A DNA stretch of 32,000 nt from Myxococcota bacterium (GCA_040386535.1 JAZKFH010000022.1:51247-83246), one strand, 5' to 3'; counted from the stretch's first letter, positions 1 to 19,971 are shown. The notes: generated by a model not told the origin, from the sequence alone. A program made the numbers and translations.

Positions 1-1902
1 CAAGAGCTTCTGGCCGCAAGTACGGATGAGGTGTTGAGTCATGACAACCTCACGTCGCAAGGAAATGCCGAGTATCGCATCCAATTCGAGGGTACCGAGT
101 TCAAGGGGACCTATAAGCCTTCGCCCGTCAACTTGCGTCGGCTGATCGAAGCAGGCCGTGTGATGGCAATGGGGAGGACGCTGCGGTACCTTCGTTTCCT
201 TCGTGACTACAAGTACTTCGAAATCAATGAGCTCTGGGATGACGTCTCCATCAGCGGCTTCGGCGATGAAAAGCTTTATGTGGTGCAAACCCTCCCAGAG
301 GTTGTCCAACGCTGCATGTTGATGACCACCGATCCTGGCGACCTCGTCCTCGATCCGACGTGCGGATCAGGCACCACCGCGTATGTCGCCGAGCAGTGGG
401 GCCGCCGCTGGATCACCATCGACACGAGTCGCGTTGCTGTCTCCATTGCACGCCAACGCGTCCTCACCGCTCGCTTCGAGCACTTCAGAACTAAGGGCCA
501 CACACCTGAATCGGGCTTCGTCTACAAGACCGTGGCACACGTGAAGCTGGGAAGCATCGCCCAGAACACCAACCTCGACCCTATCTTCGCCCGCCACCAG
601 CCCCTCCTCGACGCCGCCCTCACCCGCGCAAACACGTCGCTGAAGAACGTCGCCCCAGGCCTCCGCCGAATCCTCGCCGACAAGCTCGCCGACAAGACCG
701 CGAAGGAAGGCAAGCGCGCCGTCACCGACGCCGACACTCGCCGCTGGATGCTCCCGAAGGACGCCTTCGAACACTGGACCGTCCCGTTCGACACCGATCC
801 CGACTGGCCCGAGTCCCTCCAGAACGCCGTGACCGGCTACCGCGGCGCGTGGCGCGCCAGGATGGACGAGGTAAACGCGTGCATCGAGCGTAACGCCGAC
901 CAGGAAGAGCTCGTCGACCAGCCCGAGGTGGTCAAGGGCGTCGTCCGCGTCTCCGGCCCCTTCACCGTCGAGGGTGTGCGTCCCGAGGAGCTCTCGCTCG
1001 GCGAGGACGGCCTTTTCGACGCCACCCCCAACGAGGAGGAGCCCGAAGACAGCGTGCTCCTCGCCGCCGAGCGGCCCCCGGCTCCCTACGGCGACGAGGC
1101 ACGTGACCTCGGCAACCTGCACGCCTACCTCGCCCAGATGGTCGACCATCTGCGCCGGGACGGCGTCACCTTCCCCAACAACAAGCATCGGGCATTCGCG
1201 CGGGTCGATCCGTTCAACCAGTCCGGCTCGCTGGTGCACGCCGAGGGCGCGTGGGAGGGCACCGATGCGGACCAGCCGAGCACCGTAGCCATCGGGTTCG
1301 GCCCCCAGTGCGGCCCGGTCACCGCGCGTCAGGTCGAGGAGCTCATCCGCGCCAGCCGCCGCTACGACGACCTGGTCATCGCCGGCTTCAGCTTCGAGGC
1401 GGATGCCTCGGCCTACATTAAGGAGAACCCGCACCCGAAGCTGCGCATCCACCAGGCCCACATCCGCCCCGACATCAACCCGGGCATGGACGGGTTGCTC
1501 AAGAACACCCCCAACAGCCAGCTGTTCACCGTGTTCGGCACCCCGGAGATCAAGCTCTCCCGGGATGGGGACGAGTGGGTGTGCGAGCTCGAGGGCGTCG
1601 ATATCTACGACCCGGTCAACAACGTGGTCCGCTCCACGAAGGCCGAGAAGGTGGCAGCGTGGTTCCTCGACAGTGACTTCGACGGGCGCTGCTTCTGTGT
1701 CACCCAGGCCTTCTTCCCCGATCAGGACGCGTGGGAGAAGATCGCCAAGGCCCTGAAGGGCTCGGCCGACCCGGAGGCGTTCGCTGCCTTCTCCGGCACG
1801 ACGTCGGTGCCCTTCAAGGCCGGCCGCCACAAGCGTGTCGCCGTGAAGGTGGTCGATCCGCGCGGCAACGAGGTCATGGCCATCCGCGCGTTGGGGCGCT
1901 GA
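1..1902 (+). CDS. mod: DNA amino-methyltransferase (N6-adenine/N4-cytosine class, Type III Mod-like), 5' end outside the window, with a ~480-aa C-terminal extension
   Basis: Frame 1 is open from nt 1, with no stop before the GTG at 31 used by the ORF track, so the gene is cut by the window edge. It carries the AdoMet-binding motif I segment GDLVLDPTCGSGTTAYVAEQWGRRWITIDTS (DPTCGSGTT at about nt 352-378). This is preceded by YVVQTLPEVVQRCMLMTT, as in Type III Mod proteins. The catalytic DPPY-type motif is expected upstream of the window. The TGA stop at 1900-1902 lies 1 nt before the res-like ATG. Confidence 0.85.
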   Translation, partial: QELLAASTDEVLSHDNLTSQGNAEYRIQFEGTEFKGTYKPSPVNLRRLIEAGRVMAMGRTLRYLRFLRDYKYFEINELWDDVSISGFGDEKLYVVQTLPEVVQRCMLMTTDPGDLVLDPTCGSGTTAYVAEQWGRRWITIDTSRVAVSIARQRVLTARFEHFRTKGHTPESGFVYKTVAHVKLGSIAQNTNLDPIFARHQPLLDAALTRANTSLKNVAPGLRRILADKLADKTAKEGKRAVTDADTRRWMLPKDAFEHWTVPFDTDPDWPESLQNAVTGYRGAWRARMDEVNACIERNADQEELVDQPEVVKGVVRVSGPFTVEGVRPEELSLGEDGLFDATPNEEEPEDSVLLAAERPPAPYGDEARDLGNLHAYLAQMVDHLRRDGVTFPNNKHRAFARVDPFNQSGSLVHAEGAWEGTDADQPSTVAIGFGPQCGPVTARQVEELIRASRRYDDLVIAGFSFEADASAYIKENPHPKLRIHQAHIRPDINPGMDGLLKNTPNSQLFTVFGTPEIKLSRDGDEWVCELEGVDIYDPVNNVVRSTKAEKVAAWFLDSDFDGRCFCVTQAFFPDQDAWEKIAKALKGSADPEAFAAFSGTTSVPFKAGRHKRVAVKVVDPRGNEVMAIRALGR

Positions 1903-1903
1903 C

Positions 1904-4900
1904 ATGGCACGCCCTCCCCGTTCCGCGAATCCGAGCGCCAACCCCGGGCCTGCCGACGACTGGGTCCCCACCCAGCCGGTTGCCAACCCGATCCTCAATC
2001 GCCCCTACGACGAGCCGACGCGCCACTGGCTCTACGAGAAGGGCATCCCGCGCGAGGTGCCAACCCGCCGGCCCGCCAGCTATTACTACATCACCAAGAA
2101 GATCGGGACCCGTCAGGAAGGCCTGTGGGCCGAGGAGCGGGCGGACCGGCTCGAGCTCGTCAATCGGCTCCGCGCGGACGTCGGGCGGTGGCGGGCGGCC
2201 AACTACAAGGGAGCCTCGAACACGACCAAGGCGCTGTTCGCCTACTGGTTCCATCCCGATCGGCCCCGCCGGCTGTTCTTCTGTCAACGCGAGGCGGTGG
2301 AGACCCTCATCTACCTGCTGGAGCTCGGCATCCCCGGCCACCTCGGGCGCTCGGGGTTCCGCAAGTTCGACCTCGACGCCGAGGCCATCGCTGCGCTCCT
2401 CGTGGGAGGCAAGCCGGCCTTCGTCGCTGCCGACGCCGAGCACTGGCCGCGCTTGGTGGATCCCGCAGTGGAGCTCCCCATCGCGCTCCGTCGGCTCGGC
2501 TGCCGCATGGCGACCGGCTCCGGGAAGACGCTGGTCATGGCCATGCTCATCACCTGGGCGTTCTGCAACCGTGGTGTGAACGGCGCCTCGACCCAGTACC
2601 CCAACGCGGTGCTGGTGTGCGCGCCCAACCTGACCGTGCGCACCCGCCTCCAAGTGCTCCGCCCCGGCGAGCCCGGCAACTACTACGACCTGTTCGACCT
2701 GGTGCCGCGCGCCTTCGCGGACCTGTTGGGGATGGGGAAGGTGCTCGTCACCAACTGGCACGCCTTCGCGCCCAAGAGCGAGCACCGCGAGGGAGACACC
2801 ACCTTCCCGGTCGTGCAGAAGGGCGAGGAGACGCCCGAGGCGTTCACCCGTGACCGCCTCGCGGAGCTGGCCCACCGCCTGCCCATCCTCGTGCTCAACG
2901 ACGAGGGGCACCACTGCTGGCGGCCCAAGCCCGACGCCACGCTGGACCTGAAGGACCTCTCGCCCGACGAGAAGGCAGCCGCGACGGAGGATGCCGAAGA
3001 GGCGCGGGTGTGGCTCGCCGGCCTGGACCGCATCAACAACAGCGGCCTTGCAGGAAAGGGCCTCCCCGGCATCCTCGCCACCATCGACCTCTCCGCGACA
3101 CCCTTCTACCTTGGCAACAGCGGGTACCCCGAGGGCAGCCCCTTCCCGTGGCTGGTATCGGATTTCGGCTTGGTCGACGCCATCGAGAGCGGCATCGTCA
3201 AGGTGCCCCGCATGCCCGTTGGCGACAGCGAGCGGAACAAGGACGACGCTGGACGACCCGACCCGAAGTTCTTCCGCCTGTGGAAACACGTCATCGACAA
3301 GATGACGCCGAGCGACAAGGTGGGGAAGCGTTGGAAGCCGGAGTCCCTGTACGGTGCGGCGGAGTCCGCCTTGGCTACCCTGGCCTCGCAGTGGAAGATC
3401 CTCTACGAGGAGATGCGCCTCCGCGCCGGCGGCGCCGAGTTCCTTCCGCCGGTCCTCATCGTGGTGTGTGACAACACCGAGCTGTCCAAGCTCGTCTTCG
3501 AGATGATCAGCGGCGAGCGCGTGAAGTCCGTGCCCGACGAGGAAGGAGTCATCAAGGCGACCACCGTGTTCGAAGGAAGCAAGTTGTTCCCCGAGCTCGC
3601 GAACAGCGAGGGTACGCGCCACACCATCCGCATCGACTCGAAGCTGCTCGGCAAGCTCGAGGGCGCCGACGGCCAGACCCGCGACGAGGCGGCGCTCGCG
3701 CTGCGCACGCTCATCGACACCGTCGGCAAGCGCGGGCTCCCAGGCGAGCAGGTGCGGTGCGTCGTGTCGGTCTCGATGCTCACCGAGGGGTGGGACGCCA
3801 ACAACGTCACCCACATCCTCGGCATCCGCGCGTTCGGCACCCAGCTGTTGTGTGAGCAGGTGGTCGGCCGCGGCCTGCGTCGCATGAACTACGAGGTGAA
3901 CCCCGAGGGGTTCATGGAGCCAGAGTACGCCGACATCTACGGCATCCCCTTCTCGCTCATCCCGTTCCAGAAGACCCCGGAAGGAAAGGGGGAGAACACC
4001 CCCGAGTACCACCGCGTCTACACAGTCCCCGGGCGCGAGAAGCTGCGCCTCACGATGCCCATCGTGGAGAGCTACACGTACGATCTGCGCAGCAGCGGCA
4101 TCGAGTGTGACGTCGACACCCTGGAGGGGATGATCGTCAACGTGGAGCCCACCGAGGTGTTCCTGTCGATCACGCGCGGCTACGAGGAGGAGGGCGCCCG
4201 GGTCGACTCGGGCGACTTCATCCGTCAGACCCGCGCCGAGTTCTACGAGCAGACGCGGTTCCAGCAGGTGATTTTCCGGATCGCGCAGCAGATCACGGAT
4301 GACCTCGTGATGGGTGTGCGGGAGGGGGTTCCCACCCAGCTCGTCAAGGAGACGCTGCTCGCGCGCCATCAGGTGTTTCCGGACGTGGTGCGGATCCTCG
4401 GAGCGTACGTCGAGAAGCGGGTCACGTTCGGCCCGGGAGTGGACCGGCGCGAGCTGGCACTGGAGCGTTATGCCCGGCTCGTCCGAGAGCGGGTCCGCGC
4501 GGGGATCTACCCCGCCGCGGGTAGCAAGGAAGCGCCGCTGCTCCCCGTAGTCAACACCTTCCAGGAGACCACGAGCACCGACGGTGTGGACGAACAGACC
4601 ACGCGGCCCACCGTCCCGCTCGTCAAGAGCGAGCTCAACGCTGCCGTCGTGCTGAGCGAAGGCAAGGGGGGCGACATCGGGGAGGTGCGCGCCATCGAGG
4701 TTCTCGAAGACCTCGATCGTGTCGAGGCCTTCGCGCCGAACACCCGGAAGATCGGCTTCCAGATCCCGTGGGAGTACCTCGGCCACCCGCGCCGCTACGA
4801 GCCCGACTTCCTCGTGCGCATGCGCGGGGGCACCATCGTGGTGTTGGAGATCAAAGGCGGCAAGGGCGAGCTTCACGGCGAAGACGAGGTGCTCGCCAAG

Positions 4901-5485
4901 AACGCCGCCGCGCGCAAGTGGGTGGCGGCGGTCAACAACGCCAAGAGGTACGGCACCTGGGCGTTCGAGATCTGCCGCGAGCTTCCCAAGCTGCGCGAGC
5001 AGCTCATCCAACACTCGGCGGAGCTGCCCGGCTATCTCCCCTACCGTCGCGTCGAGCCCGATGCCGCCGAGCGCTACCGAAGCTGCGTGCCGATGTTGGG
5101 CCTCCTCGGCGCTGTGCGTCGCTGGCAGAAGCCGGCGCTGATGGACCTTGGCGATCCCAACGTCGAGTGGGTCACCTGGAACGGCGCGCCCGCCTTCGCC
5201 GACGGCATGTTCGTCGCACCCGTGGCGGGCAAGTACGCGCTCTTCCAGCCCTCCGCGGAGGAGCCCGCCGAGGGCGGCTCCTACCTCCTCTACAACGCCG
5301 GCATCGCCGATCCCGATACCGACGCACCCTTCACGGTGCGGACCTTCACGGTCGAGCCGCCCACGCCGGAGCGCTCCCAGGCGCGGATCGTGCTCAAGGG
5401 CCTGCGGGAAGGTGACGTGCCGATCGTCATTCCGGGGTCGGGGGTGGTGAAGGTGGTGGCTTCGTTTGCGGGCTGGGTGCGTTGA
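1904..5485 (+). CDS. res: Type III restriction Res-like SF2 helicase-nuclease (1193 aa) with an extra C-terminal domain
   Basis: Motif I is RMATGSGKTLVMAML (from about nt 2504). Motif II is LVLNDEGHHCW (DEGH). The motif V/VI region is SVSMLTEGWDANNVTHILGIRAFGTQLLCEQVVGRGLRR. A PD-(D/E)xK-type core follows, YEPDFLVRMRGGTIVVLEIKGGKGE (about nt 4795-4870). Gene order is mod then res, as in Type III R-M systems. About 200 aa follow the nuclease core. Confidence 0.85.
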   Translation: MARPPRSANPSANPGPADDWVPTQPVANPILNRPYDEPTRHWLYEKGIPREVPTRRPASYYYITKKIGTRQEGLWAEERADRLELVNRLRADVGRWRAANYKGASNTTKALFAYWFHPDRPRRLFFCQREAVETLIYLLELGIPGHLGRSGFRKFDLDAEAIAALLVGGKPAFVAADAEHWPRLVDPAVELPIALRRLGCRMATGSGKTLVMAMLITWAFCNRGVNGASTQYPNAVLVCAPNLTVRTRLQVLRPGEPGNYYDLFDLVPRAFADLLGMGKVLVTNWHAFAPKSEHREGDTTFPVVQKGEETPEAFTRDRLAELAHRLPILVLNDEGHHCWRPKPDATLDLKDLSPDEKAAATEDAEEARVWLAGLDRINNSGLAGKGLPGILATIDLSATPFYLGNSGYPEGSPFPWLVSDFGLVDAIESGIVKVPRMPVGDSERNKDDAGRPDPKFFRLWKHVIDKMTPSDKVGKRWKPESLYGAAESALATLASQWKILYEEMRLRAGGAEFLPPVLIVVCDNTELSKLVFEMISGERVKSVPDEEGVIKATTVFEGSKLFPELANSEGTRHTIRIDSKLLGKLEGADGQTRDEAALALRTLIDTVGKRGLPGEQVRCVVSVSMLTEGWDANNVTHILGIRAFGTQLLCEQVVGRGLRRMNYEVNPEGFMEPEYADIYGIPFSLIPFQKTPEGKGENTPEYHRVYTVPGREKLRLTMPIVESYTYDLRSSGIECDVDTLEGMIVNVEPTEVFLSITRGYEEEGARVDSGDFIRQTRAEFYEQTRFQQVIFRIAQQITDDLVMGVREGVPTQLVKETLLARHQVFPDVVRILGAYVEKRVTFGPGVDRRELALERYARLVRERVRAGIYPAAGSKEAPLLPVVNTFQETTSTDGVDEQTTRPTVPLVKSELNAAVVLSEGKGGDIGEVRAIEVLEDLDRVEAFAPNTRKIGFQIPWEYLGHPRRYEPDFLVRMRGGTIVVLEIKGGKGELHGEDEVLAKNAAARKWVAAVNNAKRYGTWAFEICRELPKLREQLIQHSAELPGYLPYRRVEPDAAERYRSCVPMLGLLGAVRRWQKPALMDLGDPNVEWVTWNGAPAFADGMFVAPVAGKYALFQPSAEEPAEGGSYLLYNAGIADPDTDAPFTVRTFTVEPPTPERSQARIVLKGLREGDVPIVIPGSGVVKVVASFAGWVR

Positions 5486-7380
5486 GCGACCCCAAGGAGC
5501 GAAAGGGGCGAACACGGAAGCCGCGGCGCCCACCAGAGCCAGAGGATCCCATTCAGGTAGGCGAGCTGCGGTTCTCTACCGTGTTCGGCCTCCTGCTTCG
5601 CGTGGTGGCCGTCGAGAAGGACACATGCTTTGTGGAGCACGTCCCGTCGGGGCGTACATGGCGCTCGGATGCGGTCGGCACCATCCAGAAGGCCCCGAAG
5701 GTGGCGGAGGGCGGCTTCCGTTGGCGGTTCGCGCACGACGGGCCCGAGCAGGTCCTGACGGCGGGCCCCGAGCGCATTGCCGAGTGGCTGATGCTCGACG
5801 AGCGGGCGCGCGGGTGGACCGTCCTTCGTGCGCGCGCCGTGGGTGAAGCCACCGCCGGCCTGCCCGAGGGGGCGGCACTCGAGACGCGCCTGCTGGATTA
5901 CCTCGAGGGGAGCGACGAGTGGGGCCGAGAGGGCACGGGAGCCGAGAGGGGCTTCGTGCGCGGCGGTCACGTGAGGGACTGGCGGGAGCGTTGGATCGAG
6001 GCCGAGCTACCCGTGGGCTTTGCCGGCGGTGAAAAGATTCAAGACGAAGACGCGGCCGTGGCTGCCCTGCGCCTGCTGTGCGAGGCAACAGCACCAGACC
6101 TGCCCTTCCTCGGGCGCGTTCGCACCACGCGTTGGTTGCCACCAACGGTGCGCGCCGGGGCGCTGGAGCGCCTGGTCGCGGTCTGGAAGGAAACGCGGCG
6201 ACGTACCGGCTTTCGCCAGGTGCGCGAGGAAGCCTTGCTGCACATGCTCAAAGACTCCCCCGACCTGGCGGAAAGCATGGCGCGGGAGCCTGCCGTGTCA
6301 CTGGCGGTCCGGAAGGCTGCGGTGGAACAGCTGAAGGATGGAGACGAGGCCATCCGCTCCGTGATCCGCGAGGTGAGCCGCCCCGCGAACAAGGCCGGCG
6401 CGGTGCGGGTGGCGGGCCAGCTTGCTGCCCTGGCCGAGAGTCCGGCGGTCATCGTCGAGTGTGTCGCGGCATGCATGAGCAACCGTGCGGATGCAGAGAT
6501 CACCAAGGAGACGGCCGACCTCCTGGACGAGCGCCTGGAGACGCTCGACCGCACCCCGTTGCTCCTGGAGGCGGCACGCGGAGCGCTCGCGGGTGGGGCA
6601 CTCGGCGGAGCGGTTCGCGACTGGCTCAACCTCCTGGGCGGCGACGCGGCGGTCTGGGAGATCGCGGAGGCGTGGGGAACCGTTCACCGGCTGCGTGGCG
6701 AAGGGGGCCTCGCTGCCCTGTCGATCACCACGCCGGAGCTCGAGGCCGGGTTCACGCGGTGGATCGAGCAGGCGCTCGCGCTTCGGGACGACTGGGAGGC
6801 GCCGGGCGCGTTGCCCTCCTTGAAGGAAGGCTCGTTCGCTCAACTGGTAAAGGGTCACGCGGAAGGCGCTCGGCTGACTCGGAACCTCGAGTGGTTCACT
6901 CGCACGGTGGGGGCGCTGGCCGAGCTGGTCGCGCGCATCCATGCGGAGAACGGTCTGCTCCTGGCGAAGGTGGACGACAAGCAGAACGCCGAGCGGGTGC
7001 TTCGCGGAGACGACGTAGAGCGGATCCGCGCCGACCGCGGAACGCTCCTGGCGAGCGCTCGTGACGAAGTGGCCGACGAGCGGCGGGCCGAGCGGCGAAC
7101 GGTCGCGAAGATCCTCGCCGAAGTACAAACAGCCGTGGGCCGCACGCGCGAGGCTACTCCGGCTACGGCGTTGGACGCATTGGAGCGGCGTATGGTAGAG
7201 CTGGCAGCGCGTCTCGACATGACCTTCGTTGGGCGCGTCGGGGAACGGGCCCCATCTGACCCGGCACTGCATCAACTGGCTGCGGGGGTGGCGTCGGAAG
7301 GGACGATACGTTCGGTCGGCATCCGCGACGTACACGAGCTCTTGGTCAAAGGCAAAATTGGGCCGTTGGAGACGAACTGA
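5482..7380 (+). CDS. Hypothetical 632-aa mostly helical protein with a GrpE-like C-terminal segment
   Basis: This is the longest ORF in this interval on the sense strand of the operon. The proposed TTG start at 5482 overlaps the res stop (TTGA); GTG 5581 is an alternative start. The N-terminus is basic (KERKGRTRKPRRPPEPEDP). The C-terminal part has charged coiled-coil-like helices followed by LDMTFVGRVGERAPSDPALHQLAAGVASEGTIRSVG (from nt 7213). This resembles the GrpE pattern G-x-x-F-D-P-x-x-H-x-A...V.S. The GrpE assignment is tentative. Confidence 0.6.
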   Translation: MSDPKERKGRTRKPRRPPEPEDPIQVGELRFSTVFGLLLRVVAVEKDTCFVEHVPSGRTWRSDAVGTIQKAPKVAEGGFRWRFAHDGPEQVLTAGPERIAEWLMLDERARGWTVLRARAVGEATAGLPEGAALETRLLDYLEGSDEWGREGTGAERGFVRGGHVRDWRERWIEAELPVGFAGGEKIQDEDAAVAALRLLCEATAPDLPFLGRVRTTRWLPPTVRAGALERLVAVWKETRRRTGFRQVREEALLHMLKDSPDLAESMAREPAVSLAVRKAAVEQLKDGDEAIRSVIREVSRPANKAGAVRVAGQLAALAESPAVIVECVAACMSNRADAEITKETADLLDERLETLDRTPLLLEAARGALAGGALGGAVRDWLNLLGGDAAVWEIAEAWGTVHRLRGEGGLAALSITTPELEAGFTRWIEQALALRDDWEAPGALPSLKEGSFAQLVKGHAEGARLTRNLEWFTRTVGALAELVARIHAENGLLLAKVDDKQNAERVLRGDDVERIRADRGTLLASARDEVADERRAERRTVAKILAEVQTAVGRTREATPATALDALERRMVELAARLDMTFVGRVGERAPSDPALHQLAAGVASEGTIRSVGIRDVHELLVKGKIGPLETN

Positions 7381-9206: not shown

Positions 9207-9210
9207 CCAG

Positions 9211-10557
9211 ATGCCCCTCCCGTTCCTCACCGCCCTCGACCCGCAAGCCCGCGTCGCCGGCTCGCGCGACCCGCTCGGCGTGCAACCGATCTGGGGCCAC
9301 CTTGGCCGGGAGCTCGTCTCCAACCTGACCACGGTCGCGACATCGGTCCGCGGCTTCACCACGCTGATGCTGGGCCTCCACTACGCATCCCGGCTGGTCG
9401 ACGAGGCGGGCCACGACGAGGCTCAGCGGATCCGCTACTTCCTGAAGTTTGAACAGATGGTCGCGTGGAGCCGCTACGCCTGGCAGGACGAGACAGGTGA
9501 CACGGTCGAGGGGATCCGGGGCATTCGACGGGTACGGCGTACCTGGGAGGGCGGGGAGCGGAAGCCGCCGCTCGGCCTCGGTCCCGACGCGCAGATCCTG
9601 TCAGACCAGAAGACCTATGGGCTCTGGGGTCTCTTCTCGATGCCCGCGCGCGACTCCCGCCTCCGCGAGCGCGTCTCCGCACGGCTCACGGAGCCCGCCC
9701 GGGAGCACCTCTTGCCGCGCCTCGATGCGGCGCTCTCCGCCGAGGGGATACGGAACGACGCTGTCGTGATCGATTTGCTCGGACGCGACCAGCATTTCGA
9801 GCCCACGGGCCGCCACAAGGCTCTCGGACGCGCGCTGGCGGCGATGACCAAGCCTGCGTGGTCGGGAGAGGAGGAGGTGTTCTACCTGGATCACCTCGTC
9901 CAAGCGGGGAGGGGCGCCGACGGCCGGCAGGCGCGCCTCTGGGGCCACCTTGCGACCGTGAATGACCGTGACGGCACCTGGAAGGCAGGCTTCGGCATGG
10001 AGGAACTCCGCCGGGTCCGGACCGCGGCCGGCGCAGCCGGAGACACCGACATCGTCGAGCGGCTGACCTGGATCGCTGATGTGGAGGCCGTTCTCGCGCC
10101 CGCCGGGCTCCTGTTCTCGACGGTGCTCGGCGCGCATGGACAGCGCGTGGCCGACGTGGCGGCCGAGGTCGAAGCGCGCTGGGGGGCCGGCCTGGGCCAC
10201 GTGGACGTCGACGGCGTGCGCGCCGCCATTCCCCAGGTCGCGGCGATTGCCGCGGACGGAACCGCCGAGCGCCTCGACGCGCTCAGCGTGGCGTTCCGGG
10301 ACGGCGCATGGGCGGAGGCGATCACGCTGGTGATTGCACAGAACAAGGCCGTCATGGAGGCGCGCCGCGCGGGCCCTTGGGCCACGGAAAAGGCCGGCAC
10401 GCTCGACGTGCGCTTCCGTACCGACGGGGATGGGCTCGCTGTCGCGGCAGACCTGCCCGATCTCTGGGTCAACCCCTACTACCTGAGCGCGCTCAAGCAT
10501 GTCGGCGGCTCGCTGCTGCGGCGAGGCGTCCGGGAGACGAGCGTGGACGGTGAGTAG
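9211..10557 (+). CDS. Hypothetical protein (448 aa), no domain recognised
   Basis: The ATG at 9211 lies 4 nt after the upstream TAG (9204-9206). The ORF-track start at 9064 would overlap the Hsp70-like gene by 143 nt and adds an Arg/Ser-rich peptide, so I prefer 9211. The N-terminus is MPLPFLTALDPQARVAGSRDPLGVQPIWGHLGRELVSNLTTVATSVRGFTTL. I found no catalytic motif. Confidence 0.6.
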   Translation: MPLPFLTALDPQARVAGSRDPLGVQPIWGHLGRELVSNLTTVATSVRGFTTLMLGLHYASRLVDEAGHDEAQRIRYFLKFEQMVAWSRYAWQDETGDTVEGIRGIRRVRRTWEGGERKPPLGLGPDAQILSDQKTYGLWGLFSMPARDSRLRERVSARLTEPAREHLLPRLDAALSAEGIRNDAVVIDLLGRDQHFEPTGRHKALGRALAAMTKPAWSGEEEVFYLDHLVQAGRGADGRQARLWGHLATVNDRDGTWKAGFGMEELRRVRTAAGAAGDTDIVERLTWIADVEAVLAPAGLLFSTVLGAHGQRVADVAAEVEARWGAGLGHVDVDGVRAAIPQVAAIAADGTAERLDALSVAFRDGAWAEAITLVIAQNKAVMEARRAGPWATEKAGTLDVRFRTDGDGLAVAADLPDLWVNPYYLSALKHVGGSLLRRGVRETSVDGE

Positions 10558-12550: not shown

Positions 12551-15500
12551 TTGATATCGCCCCCCTCTCCCCCGACGCGGCGCGGTCGCTCCTCGACTTC
12601 CGGGGCCGGAGCGCTGCCGCCTCTGCGTTCGCGGACGCCCAGCTGGAGGGGGCAGTCGCGCTACACAACATCCTCGCACGCGAGGGGTTTGCCTACCTCG
12701 CCGACGAGGTGGGGATGGGAAAGACGTACGTAGCGCTCGGGGTGATGGCCCTGCTGCGCCACGCCCACCCCGGGCTGCGAGTGCTCTACATCGCGCCGAA
12801 GGAGAACATCCAGCGGAAATGGTACAAGGAGCTTGGTAACTTCGTCGCAAACAACTGGCGCAACGACGATTTCCGCGTCCGGGCGCTGGGCCGGCCGGGC
12901 TTCGATGTCGTGATGGCCGAGAGCCTTCAGGACCTTGCAGCCAAGGCGCGGCTCGATGCCAACCGCGATGTCATTGTCCGGATGACGAGCTTCAGCGTCG
13001 GCCTCTCCAAGGAGGCGACCACGTGGAACGCGAAGCGGGACCAGCTCCTCCGCCTGTTCCCATGGCTCGACCCCGCGCAGTTCGCCCTCTACAGCAAGAA
13101 GGCGTTCAAGGACGCCTATGCCCGCGCCGTCAACGTCGCGCTGCCGGTGTACGATTTGGTGATCGTTGACGAGGGCCACAACCTGAAGCACGGCTACAGC
13201 GAGCGCGTAGCGGCCCGCAACCGCGTGCTCGGCCTGGTCCTCGGGCGGGAAGACGCGCAGGTGCCATACCTCGACGGCGGGGGCCCCCGCGCGGACCGGA
13301 TCCTGGTCCTCTCTGCGACTCCGGTCGAGGTCGGCTGGGGCGACCTCTGGAACCAGATGAACGTGCTCGGGAAGGGCCACCTCGCCCCGATCCTCCGGCG
13401 CGGCGAAGAAGCGGGAGTGTCGGAGGGCGAGCGCCTCGCGGCAGCGCGGCGGTTCATCGTCCGCCGCCTCACCGGCATCCCGATCGGCGGACAGATTCAC
13501 ACCAAGAACATGTACCGGCGAGAGTGGCGACAGGGGGGCGTCGCGACGCATGATGAGCCGCTTCCGCTATCGGACACCCGCCAGCGGCTAATCGTCGCGC
13601 TCGCCCAGAAGAAGGTGATGGACGTGCTCTCGGCCCGGCGGGATCCGGCGGCGGGCCGATTCTCGCGCAGCTTTCAAATGGGCATGCTCGCCTCGTTCGA
13701 GAGCTTCGCCGCGACAGCGCGCGTGGAGATCAAGGGGGAGGACGGCGAATCAGAGCAACGGACTTTCGAGGAGTCCGACCAGGCGGAGCGGAGCGAAGAC
13801 CGCCAGGGGGTGGACCGTCACGCCATCGACGGGATGGCACGGCGCTACCTCGAGCGCTTCCACACCTCGCTTCCCCACCCGAAGATGGACGCTGTAGCGG
13901 CCGCCGCCGCGGAGGCGATGCTCGACCGGGGTGAGAAGTCGCTGATCTTCGTGCGCCGCATCGCGAGCGTCCCCGAGTTGTGCGCGAAAATCGCCCAACG
14001 GTACGACGATTGGGTGTTCGCCTACCTCGAGCGGGAGCTCCGCACCGGGCCAGTCTCCGATCTGCGCCAGGCGGTCGCGGAGTACCAGCTGGCGAAGCTG
14101 CGCGAACGGGACCGACACGGAGGTGCAGCGGCAGACGCCGACGAGGACCACGGCGCCGGCGACTCCTTCTTCGCCTGGTTCTTCCGCGGGGAGGCGCTCG
14201 CGGGAGAGGCCAGTTTTCGGGGACGCGCCGCCGCGTTCCGCAAGAACCGGCTCCGCGGTGAAGGGTCGGTTCACAGCACGCTGCTCGAGGACAACTACGC
14301 ACGGTTCGTGCTGGGCGCCGACCCGTTGCGTGCGCTGGCGGGACGCCTCGGGGCCACGGCTCCCGTTCTCCTCCGCAAGGGCGCCTGGCTGGCCTTCCGG
14401 CGCCCCCACCAGGTCCGGTATCCGCGCGCCCAGGTCTTCACGGCCTACCAGGAGGCGGCCCTCCGTCTCGTCGCGGACGGGAAAGACAGCGTCGCCGCGG
14501 AAGCCCGCGCCATTCTACGACGCACGTTCGCCGACCCGCCCGCGGACACCGACGGTCCGATCCCAGAGGGCTTTCCGCGCCCCGACGACATTCTCGGCGC
14601 GCCGACTCTCTTCTCGGAGCTCGAAGCCCGGCCTGCACTCTGCGCGCAGCTCTGGCCGGCATCCACCGCGTCGACCTTCGAGGCGCGGTTCGTCGAGCGT
14701 GAGCGGCGACGCCAACTCCTGGTGAGCGCGATGCTGCTCGGGCACGCCTACATCGATCTCTGGCTCCTCGCCGTGCGTTCGCTTCGCTCGCTCGCCGCTG
14801 GGGAGCGCGACGAGGATGGCGCCGCTTCTCTCGCGATCGAGTTTCTCACTCGGCTGGAGGAACAACAGGGTCAGCCGGGGCTCACGTCCTGGCGCGAACT
14901 CCACGATATCGCGGCGCACTTCCCGCTGCTTTGCGACGTGAACTTCGACCAGCTCCGCGACACGTCCCTTTCGGAGCTTCCAAAGTACTACCAGCGCACG
15001 CTCGGACGGCAGACACCAGTGGCCGGCATGTTCGGCACGGTGAACACCCAGGTCGTCCGGCAGTTCCGCATGCCGGGCTACCCCTATGTGCTCGTGACGA
15101 CCGACCTCCTCCGCGAGGGCGAAGACCTCCACCCGTTCTGTGCGCACGTCGTCCACTACGGTATCGAGTGGACCTCGTCGGCAATGGAGCAGCGCACCGG
15201 TCGCGTGGATCGCATCGGCTCGTTGACCCACCGCCGCCTCACCCGGCCAGGCCTCGTCACGGCCGAGGGGACCGACCGGCTCCAGGTCCAGTACCCGCAC
15301 CTCACGGACACAGTGGAGCTGTTCCAGGTGCGGGAAGTGTACCGGCGCATGAACCGCTTCGTCGACCTGCTGCACGACCGCGCGAGCGGCGCGGCGAGCG
15401 AGCGGAGCGACCTCGACATCGCCCGCGTCATGCACCAGGTAGCCGATGTGGCGCCGATCACCGGCACGCTGACCACGCGCTTTGCGATCAAACCCGAGTG

Positions 15501-16068
15501 GTGCGAGGGCGGACCGTCGTCGCCCGTTGCCGCCCGGGAGGAGGAGATCCTTAAATTGTTCGCGGACCAGTGCGACGCGCTCGATCGCGAGTGCTCCATC
15601 ATCTGGCGCGACCGCGACGGCGCCCACCATCGCCTCGGAACGGCGTGGATCGCGGACCGTGAGCTCTGCACGCGAGGCGCCGACACGTCAGGGCGCCGTC
15701 AGCAGCCGTTCCACGCGTTCCTGCTCCCCGCCCGGCGCACAGGCCGTGTGCTCCTGCGCATCGTCAGCCCGGTCGGCATCGTGGCGGAGCGCGACGCCGT
15801 GACCGTCTCCCGCATCGGCGTGCTCCAGCGAGCAATGCCGTCTGTGGCCGTGTTCTCCGGTGCCCCGCCGCGCACCGGCGATGGCTACAACCTCGCCGCG
15901 CGCGTGGACCTGCCGTTCGGTGCAGGGCTTACGCAACACGCGGAAGTCCGCGACGTTCTCCGCCGCGTCTGTGTTTTCGCCGATCAGATGGAGCAGGCCC
16001 TCTTGCGACACGACCTCCCGATCGAGCACTTCGTGGTCCAACTTCGACGGGAGCGCGGCGATGTCTGA
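12547..16068 (+). CDS. SNF2-like SF2 helicase/translocase (1173 aa) with a ~300-aa C-terminal extension
   Basis: The GTG at 12547 overlaps the upstream TGA (GTGA), and AGAGG lies 7 nt upstream. Motif I is LADEVGMGKTYVALGVMALL (nt 12703-12726). Motif Ia is YIAPKENIQRKWYKEL. Motif II is LVIVDEGHNLKH (nt 13168-13179). Motif III is LVLSATPVE. Motif V is VLVTTDLLREGEDLH. Motif VI is WTSSAMEQRTGRVDRIGS. Confidence 0.85.
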   Translation: MIDIAPLSPDAARSLLDFRGRSAAASAFADAQLEGAVALHNILAREGFAYLADEVGMGKTYVALGVMALLRHAHPGLRVLYIAPKENIQRKWYKELGNFVANNWRNDDFRVRALGRPGFDVVMAESLQDLAAKARLDANRDVIVRMTSFSVGLSKEATTWNAKRDQLLRLFPWLDPAQFALYSKKAFKDAYARAVNVALPVYDLVIVDEGHNLKHGYSERVAARNRVLGLVLGREDAQVPYLDGGGPRADRILVLSATPVEVGWGDLWNQMNVLGKGHLAPILRRGEEAGVSEGERLAAARRFIVRRLTGIPIGGQIHTKNMYRREWRQGGVATHDEPLPLSDTRQRLIVALAQKKVMDVLSARRDPAAGRFSRSFQMGMLASFESFAATARVEIKGEDGESEQRTFEESDQAERSEDRQGVDRHAIDGMARRYLERFHTSLPHPKMDAVAAAAAEAMLDRGEKSLIFVRRIASVPELCAKIAQRYDDWVFAYLERELRTGPVSDLRQAVAEYQLAKLRERDRHGGAAADADEDHGAGDSFFAWFFRGEALAGEASFRGRAAAFRKNRLRGEGSVHSTLLEDNYARFVLGADPLRALAGRLGATAPVLLRKGAWLAFRRPHQVRYPRAQVFTAYQEAALRLVADGKDSVAAEARAILRRTFADPPADTDGPIPEGFPRPDDILGAPTLFSELEARPALCAQLWPASTASTFEARFVERERRRQLLVSAMLLGHAYIDLWLLAVRSLRSLAAGERDEDGAASLAIEFLTRLEEQQGQPGLTSWRELHDIAAHFPLLCDVNFDQLRDTSLSELPKYYQRTLGRQTPVAGMFGTVNTQVVRQFRMPGYPYVLVTTDLLREGEDLHPFCAHVVHYGIEWTSSAMEQRTGRVDRIGSLTHRRLTRPGLVTAEGTDRLQVQYPHLTDTVELFQVREVYRRMNRFVDLLHDRASGAASERSDLDIARVMHQVADVAPITGTLTTRFAIKPEWCEGGPSSPVAAREEEILKLFADQCDALDRECSIIWRDRDGAHHRLGTAWIADRELCTRGADTSGRRQQPFHAFLLPARRTGRVLLRIVSPVGIVAERDAVTVSRIGVLQRAMPSVAVFSGAPPRTGDGYNLAARVDLPFGAGLTQHAEVRDVLRRVCVFADQMEQALLRHDLPIEHFVVQLRRERGDV

Positions 16069-16477
16069 CCTCAAGGCCCTCGGTGCTCGACTGGATGCAC
16101 TGATCAACGCCTGTCCGAACCTGGTAGAGCGAGACGGCGCCGAGTACGTCGTACCCGTCGGTGCCCGCACCCAGCGCCTCCGCATCGGACTCGACGGCGT
16201 CCACGTCGTGTTCAGCAGCGTCGTCGCCCGCGGCTCGCAGCTCATGGACGCTCGCGGAAGCCGTTGCAGCGAAGCTGATGTCCTCGCCGACCTGTGGGCG
16301 CGCAACGCCCGGGTGGACACCGTGAGCTTCTCGCTCGACCGGCACGGGCGCGTCGTGGGGCGAATCGAGGCGCTTCTCGCGACCCTCGACGACGAGGAAC
16401 TTGCCTTCTACGTGGCCCGGCTCGCCGAGGAGTGCGACCGGTTCGAGTTCGTGCTCACGGGGGAGGACCGGGGGTGA
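16061..16477 (+). CDS. Small hypothetical protein (138 aa); faint YbjN / T3SS-chaperone-like pattern, low confidence
   Basis: The ATG at 16061 overlaps the helicase stop by 8 nt (ATGTCTGA), and GGGAG lies 7 nt upstream. The ORF-track start at 15860 would lie inside the helicase gene. The sequence is MSDLKALGARLDALINACPNLVERDGAEYVVPVG...DDEELAFYVARLAEECDRFEFVLTGEDRG. Confidence 0.6.
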   Translation: MSDLKALGARLDALINACPNLVERDGAEYVVPVGARTQRLRIGLDGVHVVFSSVVARGSQLMDARGSRCSEADVLADLWARNARVDTVSFSLDRHGRVVGRIEALLATLDDEELAFYVARLAEECDRFEFVLTGEDRG

Positions 16478-19400
16478 GCAACGACAATCTGAACGCGTCC
16501 ACTCTCATTGTAGAATCCGAGGCGGAGCTCGAGCGAGCGCTCGACGAGCTCAGCCGAATTCTGCCCCTGCCCATCGCTCAGTGCCTCGGTGTCGGAGGGA
16601 TCCGGCGCGACATTCCAACGCTGTTGTTCAGCGCCGAAAGCGCGCTGCGGTTCCTCGCCGCCGTCGTGAAGGCAATCTACTTGGCTGGGCCGATCAGGCC
16701 CTCGCAGGAGGTCAACGACCTGATACGACGTTTCCTAATTTGGCCGTCGACTGGAAGTTGGTGGAACTTCTTGAGGGGGTGCCTGCCACTGTTTCGCTCC
16801 GGCGCGCTGACAGGTGGCTTCCCGGGCATCGTGACGATCCTGGAGGCGCTCCCGGCCCAGGACGTGAATCGAATCATCGAGCTGCGAAACGCGGCCCACG
16901 GGCACGTGGGCGCCCCGCTCGCGCCCGAGCTGGAGCAGGTGGTGCGTGCCGAGCTTCTCCCTCTGGTGGCGAGCGTCCTCCAGACGCTCGCCCCGCTCGC
17001 CGCGTGGCCGCTGGTGGTCTACGACGCTCGGCTCGGAATCTGGTTGCGTTGTATGGGCCCCGCTCCGACCCCAGAGACGCGCGACCTGGGCGTAAACGCT
17101 CCATACCCAGCCGTGCTCCTCGACACACCGCTCGGAGACCTCCCGCTCTTCCCTCTGGTGGTGGGTACCTTCGACGGGTATGTCCCGGCTTTTGACTTAG
17201 GGAAGACCGAGACGGTGTTGGTGTACGACGGCGTCGACGTAGACCGTTCGCGAATCGTCTACGTGGGACGACACGGCCGCGGGCATGGCAAGCGGTGGTT
17301 CGAGGACTACCGCCGTCGCCTACAGGAGCGGTCCGTAGCGCTCGTCCCCTGCCAGGCCCAGGAGCTTCCGGGAGGTGAGCTTCTCGATCGGCTCCGTACC
17401 TGCTTCCTACAGACGGTCGATCTCCTACGTGCGCAGGGAGATTTCGACGGCGGGGCCCAACGTCTCGACCCTGCCGCGGTAGGCGCGCTCAACGACTCGG
17501 TCGCCTCACCAGCGCGCATAGCGATCTTGGCGGGAGAGGCCGGGATGGGGAAGTCCACTCACCTCGTCGCGCTTGGACAGCGGGTGCTGGCGGGAGGCGG
17601 TGCGGTCATCCATCTGGACGCGCGCATGGTCCTGTCGGATCCAACGCGCGCCTTCCGAAGCTCCCTGAGGGTCGCCCTGGAGGGACAATTGGCTCTCCTC
17701 GGCGCGTCGGAAGCGTTGTTGAACCTGGCGCAGGCCGCAGTGAAGGCAGAGCGGGGAGACGCAGGGCGGGTTGTGCTCCTGATCGACGGGATCGACGAGG
17801 TGGGCAGCCCAGCGCGCGGGAGTGGGGTCCTCTCCGAGTTGGCGGACTGGCTGCGTCGCAACGCCGACGCCCTACCACAGCTGCGCGTCGTGCTCGCTGT
17901 GCGGGGCACCTACCTCGCAGCGACCCAGCGGTCATCGAAACCCTTGGCGCCGATCGCCGATCGCCTTTATCGCCCCACGCGCCGCGGGGCGAGGGGCGCT
18001 GATGCCGTCGAGGACGCCATCTACCTCCTCCCACTCGACCCAGATTCCGACGAGGTCGACGCGCGGTACGAGGCCTATCGAGCGGGCGTCCCTTCCCGGC
18101 GCCCTCTGACGCCGTTCAACCAATTGTCTCCCGCCGTCCGCGACGCGTGCCGCAACCCCCGTTGGATGGTGCAACTGCTGTCGGAGTACCACGCCCGAGA
18201 AGTTCCGGCGCTGGGTGGGGCAGCGGAGCTCTGGGAGGTACTCGTGAGACGGGAGGTCTTCGCGCTGGTGGGGGGGCGTCCGCTCTACCCCGGGCGCGTG
18301 CGGCTCCTCGACGCGCTCGCCGCCGCGCAGCTCGACCAGGGCCGCCTCTTCGTGCCGCTCCACACACTCGAAGCGGACCCACAAACCGGGCCGCTCGTCC
18401 TGCGCGACTCCCCCCGAGAGGAGTTGATGGCGCTGCAGTCGGTGGGGCTCTTGTCCGTCGAGGGCTCGGACCCGCACGATCCCTTTGGGCCGCTGGTCGT
18501 TGGCCCCGCGAGTGAGGGAATGGCCGTGGCGCTCCTCGCGAACGCTCATCCCTTCCGCACCGGTGTTCCAGAGGGTTGGGTCACCCGTGTGGAGGCACAG
18601 GCATCGACCCCTCTCTGGTCGTGCGTGTCGGACGCCGCGCTTCAAGTACTGAGCGTTCGGGCGACACGGGATGGCTTCGGCGCGGTTCGCAGCGCGGCAG
18701 AGAGGCTCGACGTCGGCCTTCAAGCCCGGCTTCTGCTCCGGGTACTCGCGGATGCCAAAGCGGCTCGGGGCGTCCTCCCCCTTCCCGGTTTGGACGAGGC
18801 CGAACGTGAGCTGCTCGCGACGCTTCTCCTCGCTACGGCTTGGGGCGCCGGGCAGCAGAAGGTGCTGCTGCCCCTCGCGGAGCAGCTCCTGCAACTCCCC
18901 ATGGAGGAGCAGTCCGCCGCCACCGTCGAGATGGTGGCCCGAATCCTGCGACATTCCGAACGTGTCCCCGAGGCTGAGAGTTGGCTCGAAACCGTCATCG
19001 CAGCGCGGCCGGATCTGGAGTGCTCCGCCGGGTTCCAGCGCGCTGAACTGCTCCGCGACAAGGGGCGGTGGCGCAGTGCTCGTCGCGCCTATGCGGGCAT
19101 CGTCGGAATGCCCGTCGATGTTTCCGTTCGGGCACTCGCACTGGCTGCGCTCGGAGAATGTGAGATCTGGACAGGACAGAAGGTGGAGGCCTTGGAGCAC
19201 CTCGCCGACGCCCTCGAACTCATCGGCGAGGCCGACGCGCCGACGGTAAAATGCAACATTCACATCAAGCGTGGCATCGCCGCACGTCTGGCCCGGCGAT
19301 ATCCGCTCGCCGTGAGCGCATTGCTTGCGGCCGAGGCCATCGCGTTGCGACTCAATTACCGAACCGAGCTAGCCAAAATCGAACTCGAACTGGGGCTGGT

Positions 19401-19746
19401 GGCCTGCGCCGTGGATCGCTTCGACGAGGCTCTACAGCATGTGGATAGCGCGTTGGAACGCCACCGCGCTCAGGGGTTCGTCAAGGGCGTCAAAAAGGCA
19501 ATGTACTGTCGCGGCCACGTTCTTCAGCGCGCGGGGCGCCCAGGCGCGTTCGAAGCCTTTCATGAGAGCCTCGCACTCAACCAAAAGCACTTCGACCTCC
19601 TGGGCTTGCAATTGAACCATCGGGCGCTCGCCGAGCTCCTCCGTACATCAGACCCTGCAGCCGCCACAGAGCATGCCCAAAAGGCTTTCGAGTTTGGCAA
19701 CCGGCTCGACCGGGAGGAGTCCCCCCATGAACGCGATCTCTTGTAG
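16474..19746 (+). CDS. STAND (NACHT-like) P-loop NTPase with an N-terminal helical HEPN/DUF4145-like module and C-terminal TPR repeats (~1090 aa)
   Basis: The GTG at 16474 overlaps the upstream TGA (GTGA), and GGAGG at 16462-16466 lies 7 nt upstream. Walker A is IAILAGEAGMGKSTHLV (about nt 17533-17559). Walker B is RVVLLIDGIDEVG (about nt 17770-17802). The N-terminal module carries IIELRNAAHGHVG (nt 16879-16905). The C-terminal ~300 aa have TPR-like helix pairs (for example GRWRSARRAYAGIVG, GQKVEALEHLADALEL, DRFDEALQHVDSALERH). Confidence 0.8.
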   Translation: MSNDNLNASTLIVESEAELERALDELSRILPLPIAQCLGVGGIRRDIPTLLFSAESALRFLAAVVKAIYLAGPIRPSQEVNDLIRRFLIWPSTGSWWNFLRGCLPLFRSGALTGGFPGIVTILEALPAQDVNRIIELRNAAHGHVGAPLAPELEQVVRAELLPLVASVLQTLAPLAAWPLVVYDARLGIWLRCMGPAPTPETRDLGVNAPYPAVLLDTPLGDLPLFPLVVGTFDGYVPAFDLGKTETVLVYDGVDVDRSRIVYVGRHGRGHGKRWFEDYRRRLQERSVALVPCQAQELPGGELLDRLRTCFLQTVDLLRAQGDFDGGAQRLDPAAVGALNDSVASPARIAILAGEAGMGKSTHLVALGQRVLAGGGAVIHLDARMVLSDPTRAFRSSLRVALEGQLALLGASEALLNLAQAAVKAERGDAGRVVLLIDGIDEVGSPARGSGVLSELADWLRRNADALPQLRVVLAVRGTYLAATQRSSKPLAPIADRLYRPTRRGARGADAVEDAIYLLPLDPDSDEVDARYEAYRAGVPSRRPLTPFNQLSPAVRDACRNPRWMVQLLSEYHAREVPALGGAAELWEVLVRREVFALVGGRPLYPGRVRLLDALAAAQLDQGRLFVPLHTLEADPQTGPLVLRDSPREELMALQSVGLLSVEGSDPHDPFGPLVVGPASEGMAVALLANAHPFRTGVPEGWVTRVEAQASTPLWSCVSDAALQVLSVRATRDGFGAVRSAAERLDVGLQARLLLRVLADAKAARGVLPLPGLDEAERELLATLLLATAWGAGQQKVLLPLAEQLLQLPMEEQSAATVEMVARILRHSERVPEAESWLETVIAARPDLECSAGFQRAELLRDKGRWRSARRAYAGIVGMPVDVSVRALALAALGECEIWTGQKVEALEHLADALELIGEADAPTVKCNIHIKRGIAARLARRYPLAVSALLAAEAIALRLNYRTELAKIELELGLVACAVDRFDEALQHVDSALERHRAQGFVKGVKKAMYCRGHVLQRAGRPGAFEAFHESLALNQKHFDLLGLQLNHRALAELLRTSDPAAATEHAQKAFEFGNRLDREESPHERDLL

Positions 19747-19919: not shown

Positions 19920-19971
19920 GCATCGACTTCCAACTCGCCCACTGTCTGCCACCGCCGTGGTCGCGTTCGTT

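Follow-up and report, generated by a model that had tools for sequence, protein, structure and literature searches.

The stretch of DNA described here, a window of 32,000 nucleotides (nt) with approximately 69% G+C from a Myxococcota bacterium (GCA_040386535.1, JAZKFH010000022.1:51247-83246), encodes proteins that are annotated in a Myxococcota metagenome-assembled genome (MAG). Nine co-directional genes, read directly from the sequence, fill nt 1 to 19746 of its plus strand. The first of them, mod (1..1902), is truncated by the window edge to its 3′ 633 codons, and its 5′ part and the promoter lie outside the window. It is followed by res (1904..5485), which encodes a BPTD_3080-family restriction endonuclease of 1193 residues with a superfamily 2 (SF2) helicase and a PD-(D/E)xK nuclease, by g3 (5482..7380; 632 residues), a member of a very rare family and the partner of g4, and by g4 itself (7380..9206; 608 residues), which carries an Hsp70/MreB-type nucleotide-binding domain (NBD). 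These four genes are referred to as module A. Module B comprises g5 (9211..10557), a PDC-M27A-like gene, g6 (10550..12550), which encodes a predicted nuclease of the PLD family, g7 (12547..16068), which encodes an SNF2/SF2 helicase, and g8 (16061..16477), which encodes a YbjN-like protein of 138 residues. The last gene, g9 (16474..19746), constitutes module C and encodes a STAND NTPase of the NACHT type that ends in TPR repeats.

The genes are packed tightly, with eight junctions of +1, −4, −1, +4, −8, −4, −8, and −4 nt in order. The mod stop codon (TGA 1900-1902) lies 1 nt before the res ATG (1904), the res stop (TGA 5483-5485) overlaps the TTG of g3 (5482) by 4 nt, and the g3 stop (7378-7380) overlaps the ATG of g4 (7380) by 1 nt. 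A gap of 4 nt, the largest in the array, separates the g4 stop (9204-9206) from the ATG of g5 (9211). Further downstream, the overlaps amount to 8 nt between the g5 stop (10555-10557) and the GTG of g6 (10550), 4 nt between the g6 stop (12548-12550) and the GTG of g7 (12547), 8 nt between the g7 stop (16066-16068) and the ATG of g8 (16061), and 4 nt between the g8 stop (16475-16477) and the GTG of g9 (16474), whose own stop is at 19744-19746. An earlier note on this DNA had described the 1-nt spacing of mod and res, the overlap of the res stop with a TTG start, and the 4-nt maximum, and all three can be read directly from the sequence.

Public annotation agrees at seven of the eight junctions. 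The starts used here for res and for g4 through g9 yield proteins identical to the NCBI-annotated ones in the source MAG, and the sole exception is g3, which is publicly annotated from GTG 5581 as a protein of 599 residues. In an alignment of five g3-family proteins, the invariant residues G27, L29, and R30 lie upstream of V34, which corresponds to GTG 5581, and TTG 5482 is the only ATG, GTG, or TTG upstream of these residues in the open g3 frame. Because initiation at GTG 5581 would remove the three invariant residues, TTG 5482 is supported by the alignment as the better start, in agreement with the earlier note; at the orthologous locus L001, res likewise runs into g3, with an overlap of 16 nt. 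The g5 start is fixed by the N-terminus of its family, which is conserved from about residue 3 to 5. Shine-Dalgarno (SD)-like motifs precede g4 to g9, with GGAGG ahead of GTG 16474.

Comparisons with other genomes divide the array at two places. At the DNA level (blastn), homology to L001 begins in res and stops near the end of g4 (window positions 3827-9161), and homology to a second locus, L010, extends over 9217-16462, from the start of g5 to the end of g8, with 70.7% identity over 7.3 kb (66% for the g5 protein). In L010, the closest module B relative, g9 is absent between g8 and JetD and the Wadjet neighbor is retained; thus, g9 is an indel relative to L010, as the alignment skips it and resumes in jetD/jetC. 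The G+C content at third codon positions (GC3) varies along the same lines, being 0.86-0.91 in mod and res, 0.79-0.80 in g3 and g4, 0.84-0.87 in g5 to g8, and 0.77 in g9, the lowest of the nine. The boundary between modules A and B (9206..9211) is therefore defined by the limits of DNA homology and by a GC3 step from 0.79-0.80 to 0.84-0.87. No mobile-element signatures (repeats, att sites, tRNAs, or RNA genes) were found at the module boundaries. An assembly chimera at 9206-9211 or 16474-16477 was considered and is unlikely, because both joins are in-frame and compact and have SD motifs.

The proteins of module B can be assigned to recognizable families. The g5 protein, with 99 homologs, matches the PADLOC model PDC-M27A (3.6e-18), and no match to DUF6361 in Pfam or to ZacA in PADLOC was found for it even at E<=10. 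The g6 protein matches ZacB (5e-9), PDC-M27B (1.6e-7), and DrmC (1e-5) in PADLOC and PLDc_2 (1.9e-5) in Pfam, and contains two HxK motifs, FHAKH and THAKV. The g7 protein, 72% identical to its L010 homolog, matches PDC-M27C (2.1e-67) and ZacC (6.5e-21) in PADLOC and Helicase_C, ResIII, and SNF2-rel_dom in Pfam, with a Walker A motif (GMGKT) and a DEGH motif. The g8 protein, annotated as "YbjN domain-containing protein," matches the Pfam family YbjN above its cutoff (2.3e-5). A literature search on PDC-M27 found nothing.

The distribution of module B was surveyed with one genome per species, which gave 80 loci, and these were searched by tblastn with all nine proteins of the window. The loci come from more than 10 phyla, including Acidobacteriota, Myxococcota, Planctomycetota, Chloroflexota, Gemmatimonadota, Verrucomicrobiota, Proteobacteria, and Actinomycetota. 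The order g5-g6-g7 is the same in 72 to 77 of the 80 (g5 and g6 are collinear in 77), and in the 65 loci (among L014-L093) where the available DNA extends far enough, g8 is found behind g7 in 58. Relatives of g3, g4, and g9 were found at none of the 80 loci. At three of them, Mod/Res relatives lie within 10 kb; their gene orders are different, and 87-473 nt or several genes stand between them and g5. Two of these, L079 (1109-8802) and L041 (2189-9980), have type III-like res and mod genes co-directionally upstream of the g5 module with gaps of 87-473 nt; their gene orders differ, and the pair in L079 also belongs to the BPTD_3080 family (34% identity).

The genes upstream of module B are otherwise diverse. 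When flanking open reading frames (ORFs) were clustered, no family occurred in more than four loci. When the two genes closest upstream of the module were classified with Pfam at 60 loci (120 genes), 119 families were returned, led by N6_N4_Mtase (4), HSDR_N (3), ResIII (3), N6_Mtase (2), and Mrr (2), and DNA methyltransferase domains were present in at most 6 of the 120 proteins, that is, at no more than about 10% of loci. In most stand-alone modules, g5 is preceded by a spacer of 50-500 nt, and two further g5 relatives have transposase or housekeeping genes upstream. Nothing in this distribution suggests a dependence of module B on a self-mark made by Mod. The three proteins of the related Azaca system, ZacABC, form a complex that cleaves phage DNA without any methyltransferase (10.1101/2025.07.10.664194). 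Module B is probably an autonomous PDC-M27/Azaca-like nuclease-helicase system with no need of a methyltransferase.

Collectively, these observations argue for a reading to which we assign a probability of about 80%, namely that nt 1-19746 belong to a Myxococcota defense island and string together, in operon-like fashion, three anti-phage modules that are inherited independently of one another. The earlier note had proposed a possible nine-gene, methylation-coupled system, for which Mod could provide the self-mark, while the PLD, SNF2, and STAND genes would act as additional or alternative effectors following the logic of DISARM or BREX. Such a system would be in keeping with eight successive junctions of −8 to +4 nt, with the lack of a promoter consensus in the array and of terminators at its junctions, with the weak similarity of g6 and g7 to DrmC and DrmD, and with the restriction-modification (R-M) genes that lie co-directionally upstream of the g5 module in three other loci. 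Against it, neither the nine-gene order nor the seven-gene order was found anywhere else, so that the expected travel of genes 3-9 with Mod/Res as a unit is not seen, a stronger result than the independent occurrence of the seven-gene set that the note had named as refuting; g5 to g8 occur alone in 80 genomes without a conserved methyltransferase; and g9 is an indel. The cores of DISARM (DrmA and DrmB-DUF1998) and BREX (PglZ, BrxC, and PglX) and the ArmC protein of ARMADA are absent, and the DrmD similarity scores 55 bits against a cutoff of 610. We regard a single nine-gene system as highly improbable. The physical fusion itself is real, and its first part also shows an evolutionary linkage, as res is linked to g3 and g4 both by the gene order in L001 and by an extension of Res described below, whereas g5-g8 and g9 are inherited separately.

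Module C consists of a single gene. The g9 protein exceeds the Pfam cutoffs for NACHT (27.8 against 26.7 bits; 2.5e-6) and TPR_12 (33.2 against 30.1 bits) and also matches AAA_22, and its only PADLOC similarity of this kind, to Avs2 (2.9e-4), lies over the P-loop. Its N-terminal region of about 340 residues has no match in Pfam, PDB, or PHROGs, no plasmid or PDB match was obtained for the protein, and it is a singleton at 90% identity. These features are consistent with a stand-alone STAND-TPR sensor NTPase.

Module A begins with an R-M pair. The available part of Mod matches the PADLOC model MTase_III (PDLC03632, 2e-83) from profile position ~411 of 983 onward and Pfam N6_N4_Mtase (1.4e-12), and its translation contains the S-adenosylmethionine-binding motif DPTCGSGTT; the catalytic DPPY region lies beyond the window edge. 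It is predicted to be a large type III-like DNA methyltransferase. Res, whose exact sequence is annotated as MES2641348, scores 811.1 bits against a cutoff of 800 with the NCBIfam model NF046055 over residues 194-1037, matches PADLOC REase_III (5e-10), and has the motifs GSGKT, DEGHH, and EPDF...LEIKG in its translation, as expected of a helicase and a PD-(D/E)xK nuclease. By these assignments, mod-res is a type III-like R-M system of the BPTD_3080 family with predicted sequence-specific methylation and restriction activity; a literature search on this family found nothing. The same family name is carried by 43 Res homologs on plasmids, where the systems are plain Mod and Res pairs in either order, some with small inserts. 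A 624-residue gene that follows Mod in plasmid pAQ5 was examined as a candidate relative of g3 or g4 and has no similarity to them.

The Res protein of the window differs from these plasmid homologs at its C-terminus. The NCBIfam model stops at residue 1037, and 155 residues (5018..5482, plus strand) lie past its end. None of the 43 plasmid homologs aligns beyond residue ~1034, and no match to the extension was found in Pfam, PDB, or PHROGs or on plasmids. It is 62% identical to the C-terminus of the L001 Res, and the two Res proteins that are linked to g3 and g4, those of the window and of L001, are the only ones in which it occurs.

The two genes that follow res encode a rare pair of proteins. 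The g3 protein comprises an N-terminal beta region, helical repeats, a long coiled coil, and a small conserved C-terminal domain, and searches of Pfam, NCBIfam, PADLOC, and PHROGs assigned it to no family. Two matches were found in 5.8 billion proteins, and when 1.84 billion cluster representatives were scanned exhaustively with HMMER, 13 representatives of the family were recovered, five of them full length. Its AlphaFold2 (AF2) model, built from a two-sequence alignment, has a mean confidence score (pLDDT) of 49.8, with only the helices at about residues 250-390 being confident. The g3 C-terminus was considered as a GrpE-like domain, but this lead is unconfirmed: residues 569-606 align with residues 128-163 of Escherichia coli GrpE (hhalign) with a score of 25.5, where none of 30 shuffles exceeded 13.9, and a probability of only 4-12%, and no GrpE match was found in PDB profile or permissive Pfam scans of six family members.

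The g4 protein can be placed more firmly. It matches MreB_Mbl (1.3e-7) and HSP70 in Pfam and Hsp70 and MreB among PDB profiles, and aligns with residues 4-357 of E. coli DnaK at a probability of 96% (hhalign). The residues D170, K233, E363, D385, T390, and D392 are invariant and correspond to the catalytic residues D8, K70, E171, D194, T199, and D201 of DnaK. The AF2 model (pLDDT 66.5) has its best Foldseek matches to MreB and to the NBD of DnaK/Hsp70 (E~1e-12). No substrate-binding domain (SBD) was detected in g4, as the alignment stops at DnaK residue 357 and the protein ends about 60 residues past the NBD. Thus, g4 appears to be an NBD-only Hsp70-like ATPase with intact catalytic residues. 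Its first 165 residues (7380-7870) form a helical region with a proline-rich linker, and conservation of this part is low even when the window is compared with L001, in contrast to the ATPase core, which is 52% identical between the two. Eight matches to g4 were obtained, and a metagenome scan gave three loci, one of them informative. Plasmid searches with g3, g4, g5, g9, and the Res extension gave no match, and no g4 relative was found in viral contigs. A relationship of the pair to the PADLOC candidate PDC-M61 was also considered and set aside, since only the g4 ATPase core matches PDC-M61B, weakly, and the g3 family matches no PADLOC model.

Where context is available, full-length g3 homologs always lie directly upstream of a g4 homolog, and the pair is the last in a co-directional operon in every instance. 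What precedes it varies. In the window and in L001 it is a BPTD_3080 Res; in L002, a methyltransferase-like gene, a gene for a 1122-residue helicase-like protein, and GmrSD; and in a JGI contig, genes for an RNA ligase, a 1978-residue DEAD/DUF1998 helicase, and GmrSD. In L003-L006, a 2-oxoglutarate (2OG)-Fe(II) oxygenase and a 301-residue protein precede the pair, and in L007 and L008, Abi_C, a 412-residue protein, and a KAP/QatA-like NTPase. L094 resembles L007 minus the NTPase: in a comparison of L007 2852-5179 with L094 6309-9455, the flanking genes are 82-88% identical, and the 775-residue KAP/QatA-like NTPase stands before g3 in only one of the two. The order res-g3-g4 is kept in L001, the only orthologous locus, where the operon ends after g4 and an unrelated convergent gene comes next.

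These contexts bear on whether g3 and g4 should be counted as a module of their own. The pair could be an autonomous two-gene defense system that lodges 3′ of other defense operons and has no link to Mod and Res, which would make four modules of the array. Its occurrence behind Res, GmrSD, a KAP/QatA-like NTPase, Abi_C with a 410-residue protein, or a 2OG oxygenase with a 301-residue protein is in line with such mobility, as are the presence and absence of KAP between near-identical flanks in L007 and L094, the lower GC3 of g3 and g4 (0.79-0.80 vs 0.86-0.91 in mod and res), and gaps of 30-52 nt before g3 in L003 and L094. However, no effector domain (nuclease, toxin, or membrane) could be recognized in g3 or g4, a co-directional defense gene stood directly upstream of the pair in all cases seen, the overlap of res and g3 is conserved across ~50% protein divergence, and the extension is found only in Res proteins linked to g3 and g4. 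We consider a four-module arrangement a possibility of the minor kind. An accessory role coupled to the upstream enzyme is favored, although at roughly even odds, because g3 and g4 lack a recognizable effector domain and are always preceded by a defense gene of the nuclease or NTPase type.

A more elaborate version of this accessory role can be put forward tentatively. The pair would be a very rare and previously undescribed two-protein accessory, made of a scaffold and a catalytically competent NBD-only Hsp70-like ATPase. It would plug into the type IV enzyme GmrSD, into the KAP/QatA-like NTPase, and into a type III-like Res, in the last case by way of a C-terminal domain dedicated to docking. 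With ATP as its energy source, it would control these enzymes, assemble them, or guard them, for instance as a sensor of anti-restriction proteins. While the gene map, the family assignments, the module boundaries, and the separate distribution of the modules are shown by the analysis, co-transcription, biochemical activities, and a physical coupling of g3/g4 to Res are things that we infer here, and the docking idea in particular stays at that level because the window and L001 are orthologous and the Res linkage is a single event. The division of the array into modules is independent of this coupling.

Under the modular reading, the three parts may be pictured to work as follows. In module A, Mod would mark host DNA and Res, with its SF2 motor and PD-(D/E)xK nuclease, would attack unmarked DNA. 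The g3 scaffold and the g4 ATPase would form an ATP-driven accessory of the upstream enzyme, acting as a regulator, an assembly factor, or a sensor, and might dock on the extra 155-residue C-terminal domain of Res. In module B, g5, the PLD nuclease g6, the SNF2 helicase g7, and the YbjN-like g8 would act as a self-sufficient system. In module C, g9 would serve as a stand-alone sensor NTPase. All of these genes are probably expressed from one transcript, with a promoter upstream of mod, beyond the window, and translational coupling at the overlaps.

Several results concern this transcript. A consensus scan found no sigma-70-like promoter in 1-20000, including the region near 5400-5600 where the earlier note had suggested looking for an internal one; the scan covered sigma-70-type consensus only, and internal promoters within coding sequence are possible. 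The statement that there is no terminator-like structure stands for the junctions, where no terminator-like hairpins were found, and has to be qualified within genes, where 12 weak hairpins occur against 7.8 +/- 2.1 expected, a number not clearly above shuffles. No Rfam families, tRNAs, or significant repeats were found in the window. The spacer upstream of module B, 50-500 nt in most other genomes, is lost in the window, which makes a single read-through transcript plausible. Co-transcription of the array with translational coupling at its overlaps is thus likely.

The earlier note had further taken such overlaps as normally indicating coupling rather than the chance adjacency of independent systems, and this part does not hold. 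Compact spacing is usual for operons of this genome, and the adjacent Muk/Jet operon likewise has 4-nt overlaps. In L024 (4383-10001), a DUF262/GmrSD-like protein and then a 1183-residue Upf1/IGHMBP2-type superfamily 1 (SF1) helicase are joined to the g5 module without a single intervening nucleotide (a gap of 0 nt), although these modules are unrelated. Since unrelated modules abut as well, tight spacing is evidence for co-transcription and not for one system.

Besides the internal promoters mentioned above, a number of points weigh against the modular reading and its parts. First, the contig of L010 begins 108 nt before g5; nothing g4-like is present in these nucleotides, in which one frame is open. 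Second, R-M is the commonest class of neighbor of module B, at only about 10% of loci, which is compatible with some benefit of co-location. Third, an independent distribution shows that modules can work apart, and they may still cooperate here. Fourth, as regards the coupling of g3/g4 to Res, the orthology of the window and L001 means that the linkage of res-g3-g4 and the Res extension count as a single event in evolution, and the extension could be a clade feature that is independent of g3/g4. Likewise, the other upstream partners of g3/g4 share no detectable domain with the extension: BLASTP detected no common docking domain among the GmrSD, KAP, 301-, 410-, and 412-residue proteins.

A further suggestion is that separable modules have been selected here as layered or synergistic defense, with R-M directed against unmodified DNA, the Azaca-like module against modified escapers, and the STAND protein as a backstop, co-transcription serving co-expression. 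The BmAzaca system prefers glucosyl-hydroxymethylcytosine T4 DNA (10.1101/2025.07.10.664194), the neighbors most often found next to module B are R-M and type IV genes, and the spacer upstream of module B has been lost in the window, all of which would suit such an arrangement. A precedent for serial systems that are separately functional yet synergistic has been described (10.1101/2025.09.22.677730), and by analogy a cooperative layered defense is possible in this island. However, the proposal is speculative, and about 90% of module B loci have no R-M in the two nearest upstream genes. On balance, selection for layering seems unlikely.

The remainder of the window contains further genes. A Wadjet/MksBEFG-type operon on the minus strand (19972-27552) is convergent with g9, and the same neighbor follows g8 in L010. 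It includes genes for a MukF-like protein (26026-27552), a MukB-like protein (20970-25385), and a JetD-like protein of 333 residues (19972-20973), all on the minus strand; its MukE ORF comprises 450 residues with a Pfam match only from residue 243, and the true start is probably internal. As this operon also lies downstream of the array, the region can be described as a defense island. A gene for an LGFP-repeat protein (27386-28453, plus strand) is located between the Muk-like operon and a pair of minus-strand genes that encode an AAA ATPase (29468-30940; PF00004, 6e-26) with a cysteine-rich N-terminus and an unassigned 322-residue ORF (28503-29471), which overlap by 4 nt. This pair (28503-30940) may be another defense pair.

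These results have implications for the description of defense systems. The novelty of the locus lies in the rare Hsp70-like pair, in the Res extension, and in the finding that PDC-M27 has four genes. With its YbjN-like member added, this candidate system is a module that is widespread across phyla and would be methyltransferase-independent. If g3/g4 do plug into Res, the first four genes would represent a new four-component variant of type III R-M, and should the pair prove to be a genuine accessory, the factors that regulate restriction enzymes would come to include chaperone-like ATPases, for which CnuD of CoCoNuT systems is the only described parallel that was found. For genome mining, the array serves as a caution that operon compaction alone should not define multi-gene defense systems.

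Compared to known systems, the modules of the array show both close similarities and clear differences. The mod-res pair resembles the BPTD_3080 type III-like R-M systems, which consist of an NF046055 Res and a methyltransferase of ~900 residues, in that Res passes the cutoff and has the motifs and a large Mod is adjacent 1 nt away; it differs in that the Res of the window has an extra domain of 155 residues and is followed by g3/g4 with an overlap of 4 nt. Module B shares with PDC-M27 the collinear A, B, and C matches in g5, g6, and g7, and differs from it by the YbjN-like fourth gene, as the PADLOC model lists A, B, and C only. With Azaca it has in common an unknown protein, a PLD nuclease, and an SF2/SNF2 helicase, matches to ZacB and ZacC, and the lack of a methyltransferase, and it differs in that g5 is neither DUF6361 nor ZacA at the sequence level.

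The array is also reminiscent of DISARM and ARMADA, since its parts include an adenine methyltransferase alongside an SNF2 helicase and a PLD-type protein. However, it contains no DrmA-like DExH protein and no DUF1998/DrmB, its methyltransferase is a type III Mod with its own Res, and its SNF2 and PLD genes travel without a methyltransferase elsewhere. No DUF1998/MZB match was found in the nine proteins, and the DrmA match of g7 covers a generic Helicase_C segment only. At the family level, DrmD reaches 55 of the 610 bits required by NCBIfam, as given above, and DrmC 20.7 against a cutoff of 133. Neither the DrmA-like DExH and DUF1998 domains that define ArmC of ARMADA II nor the UvrD-like domain of ArmD (10.1101/2025.09.22.677730) is present in 1-19746. 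For BREX, no PglZ, BrxC, or PglX match was obtained in PADLOC, Pfam, or NCBIfam, and only a generic BrxH helicase-C match was obtained for g7. The g9 protein is similar to Avs and bNACHT proteins in its NACHT-type P-loop NTPase, its TPR repeats behind it, and a distinct N-terminal region before it, and differs from them in that it matches no specific Avs or bNACHT model and has an N-terminus without a recognizable effector.

For g3/g4, two groups of systems can be compared. CnuD of type III CoCoNuT systems combines an Hsp70-like NBD and SBD with HEAT-like repeats at McrBC-type restriction and has degenerate motifs (PMC11090510). An Hsp70-like ATPase and a helical-repeat component as an accessory at a restriction-type system are features shared with g3/g4. 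Compared by described architecture, g3/g4 are two proteins without an SBD and with intact catalytic residues, and their partners are a type III-like Res, GmrSD, or a KAP NTPase rather than an McrB GTPase. In GTPase-centered conflict systems, HSP70 proteins, some of them NBD-only, occur with a co-factor gene, and HSP70-GrpE modules have been described (Kaur et al. 2020, PMC7159879); at the present locus, there is no GTPase, tubulin, or DnaJ, and the GrpE-likeness of g3 is unproven. By analogy of architecture, CnuD and the HSP70/GrpE conflict modules appear to be the nearest described parallels to the g3/g4 pair.

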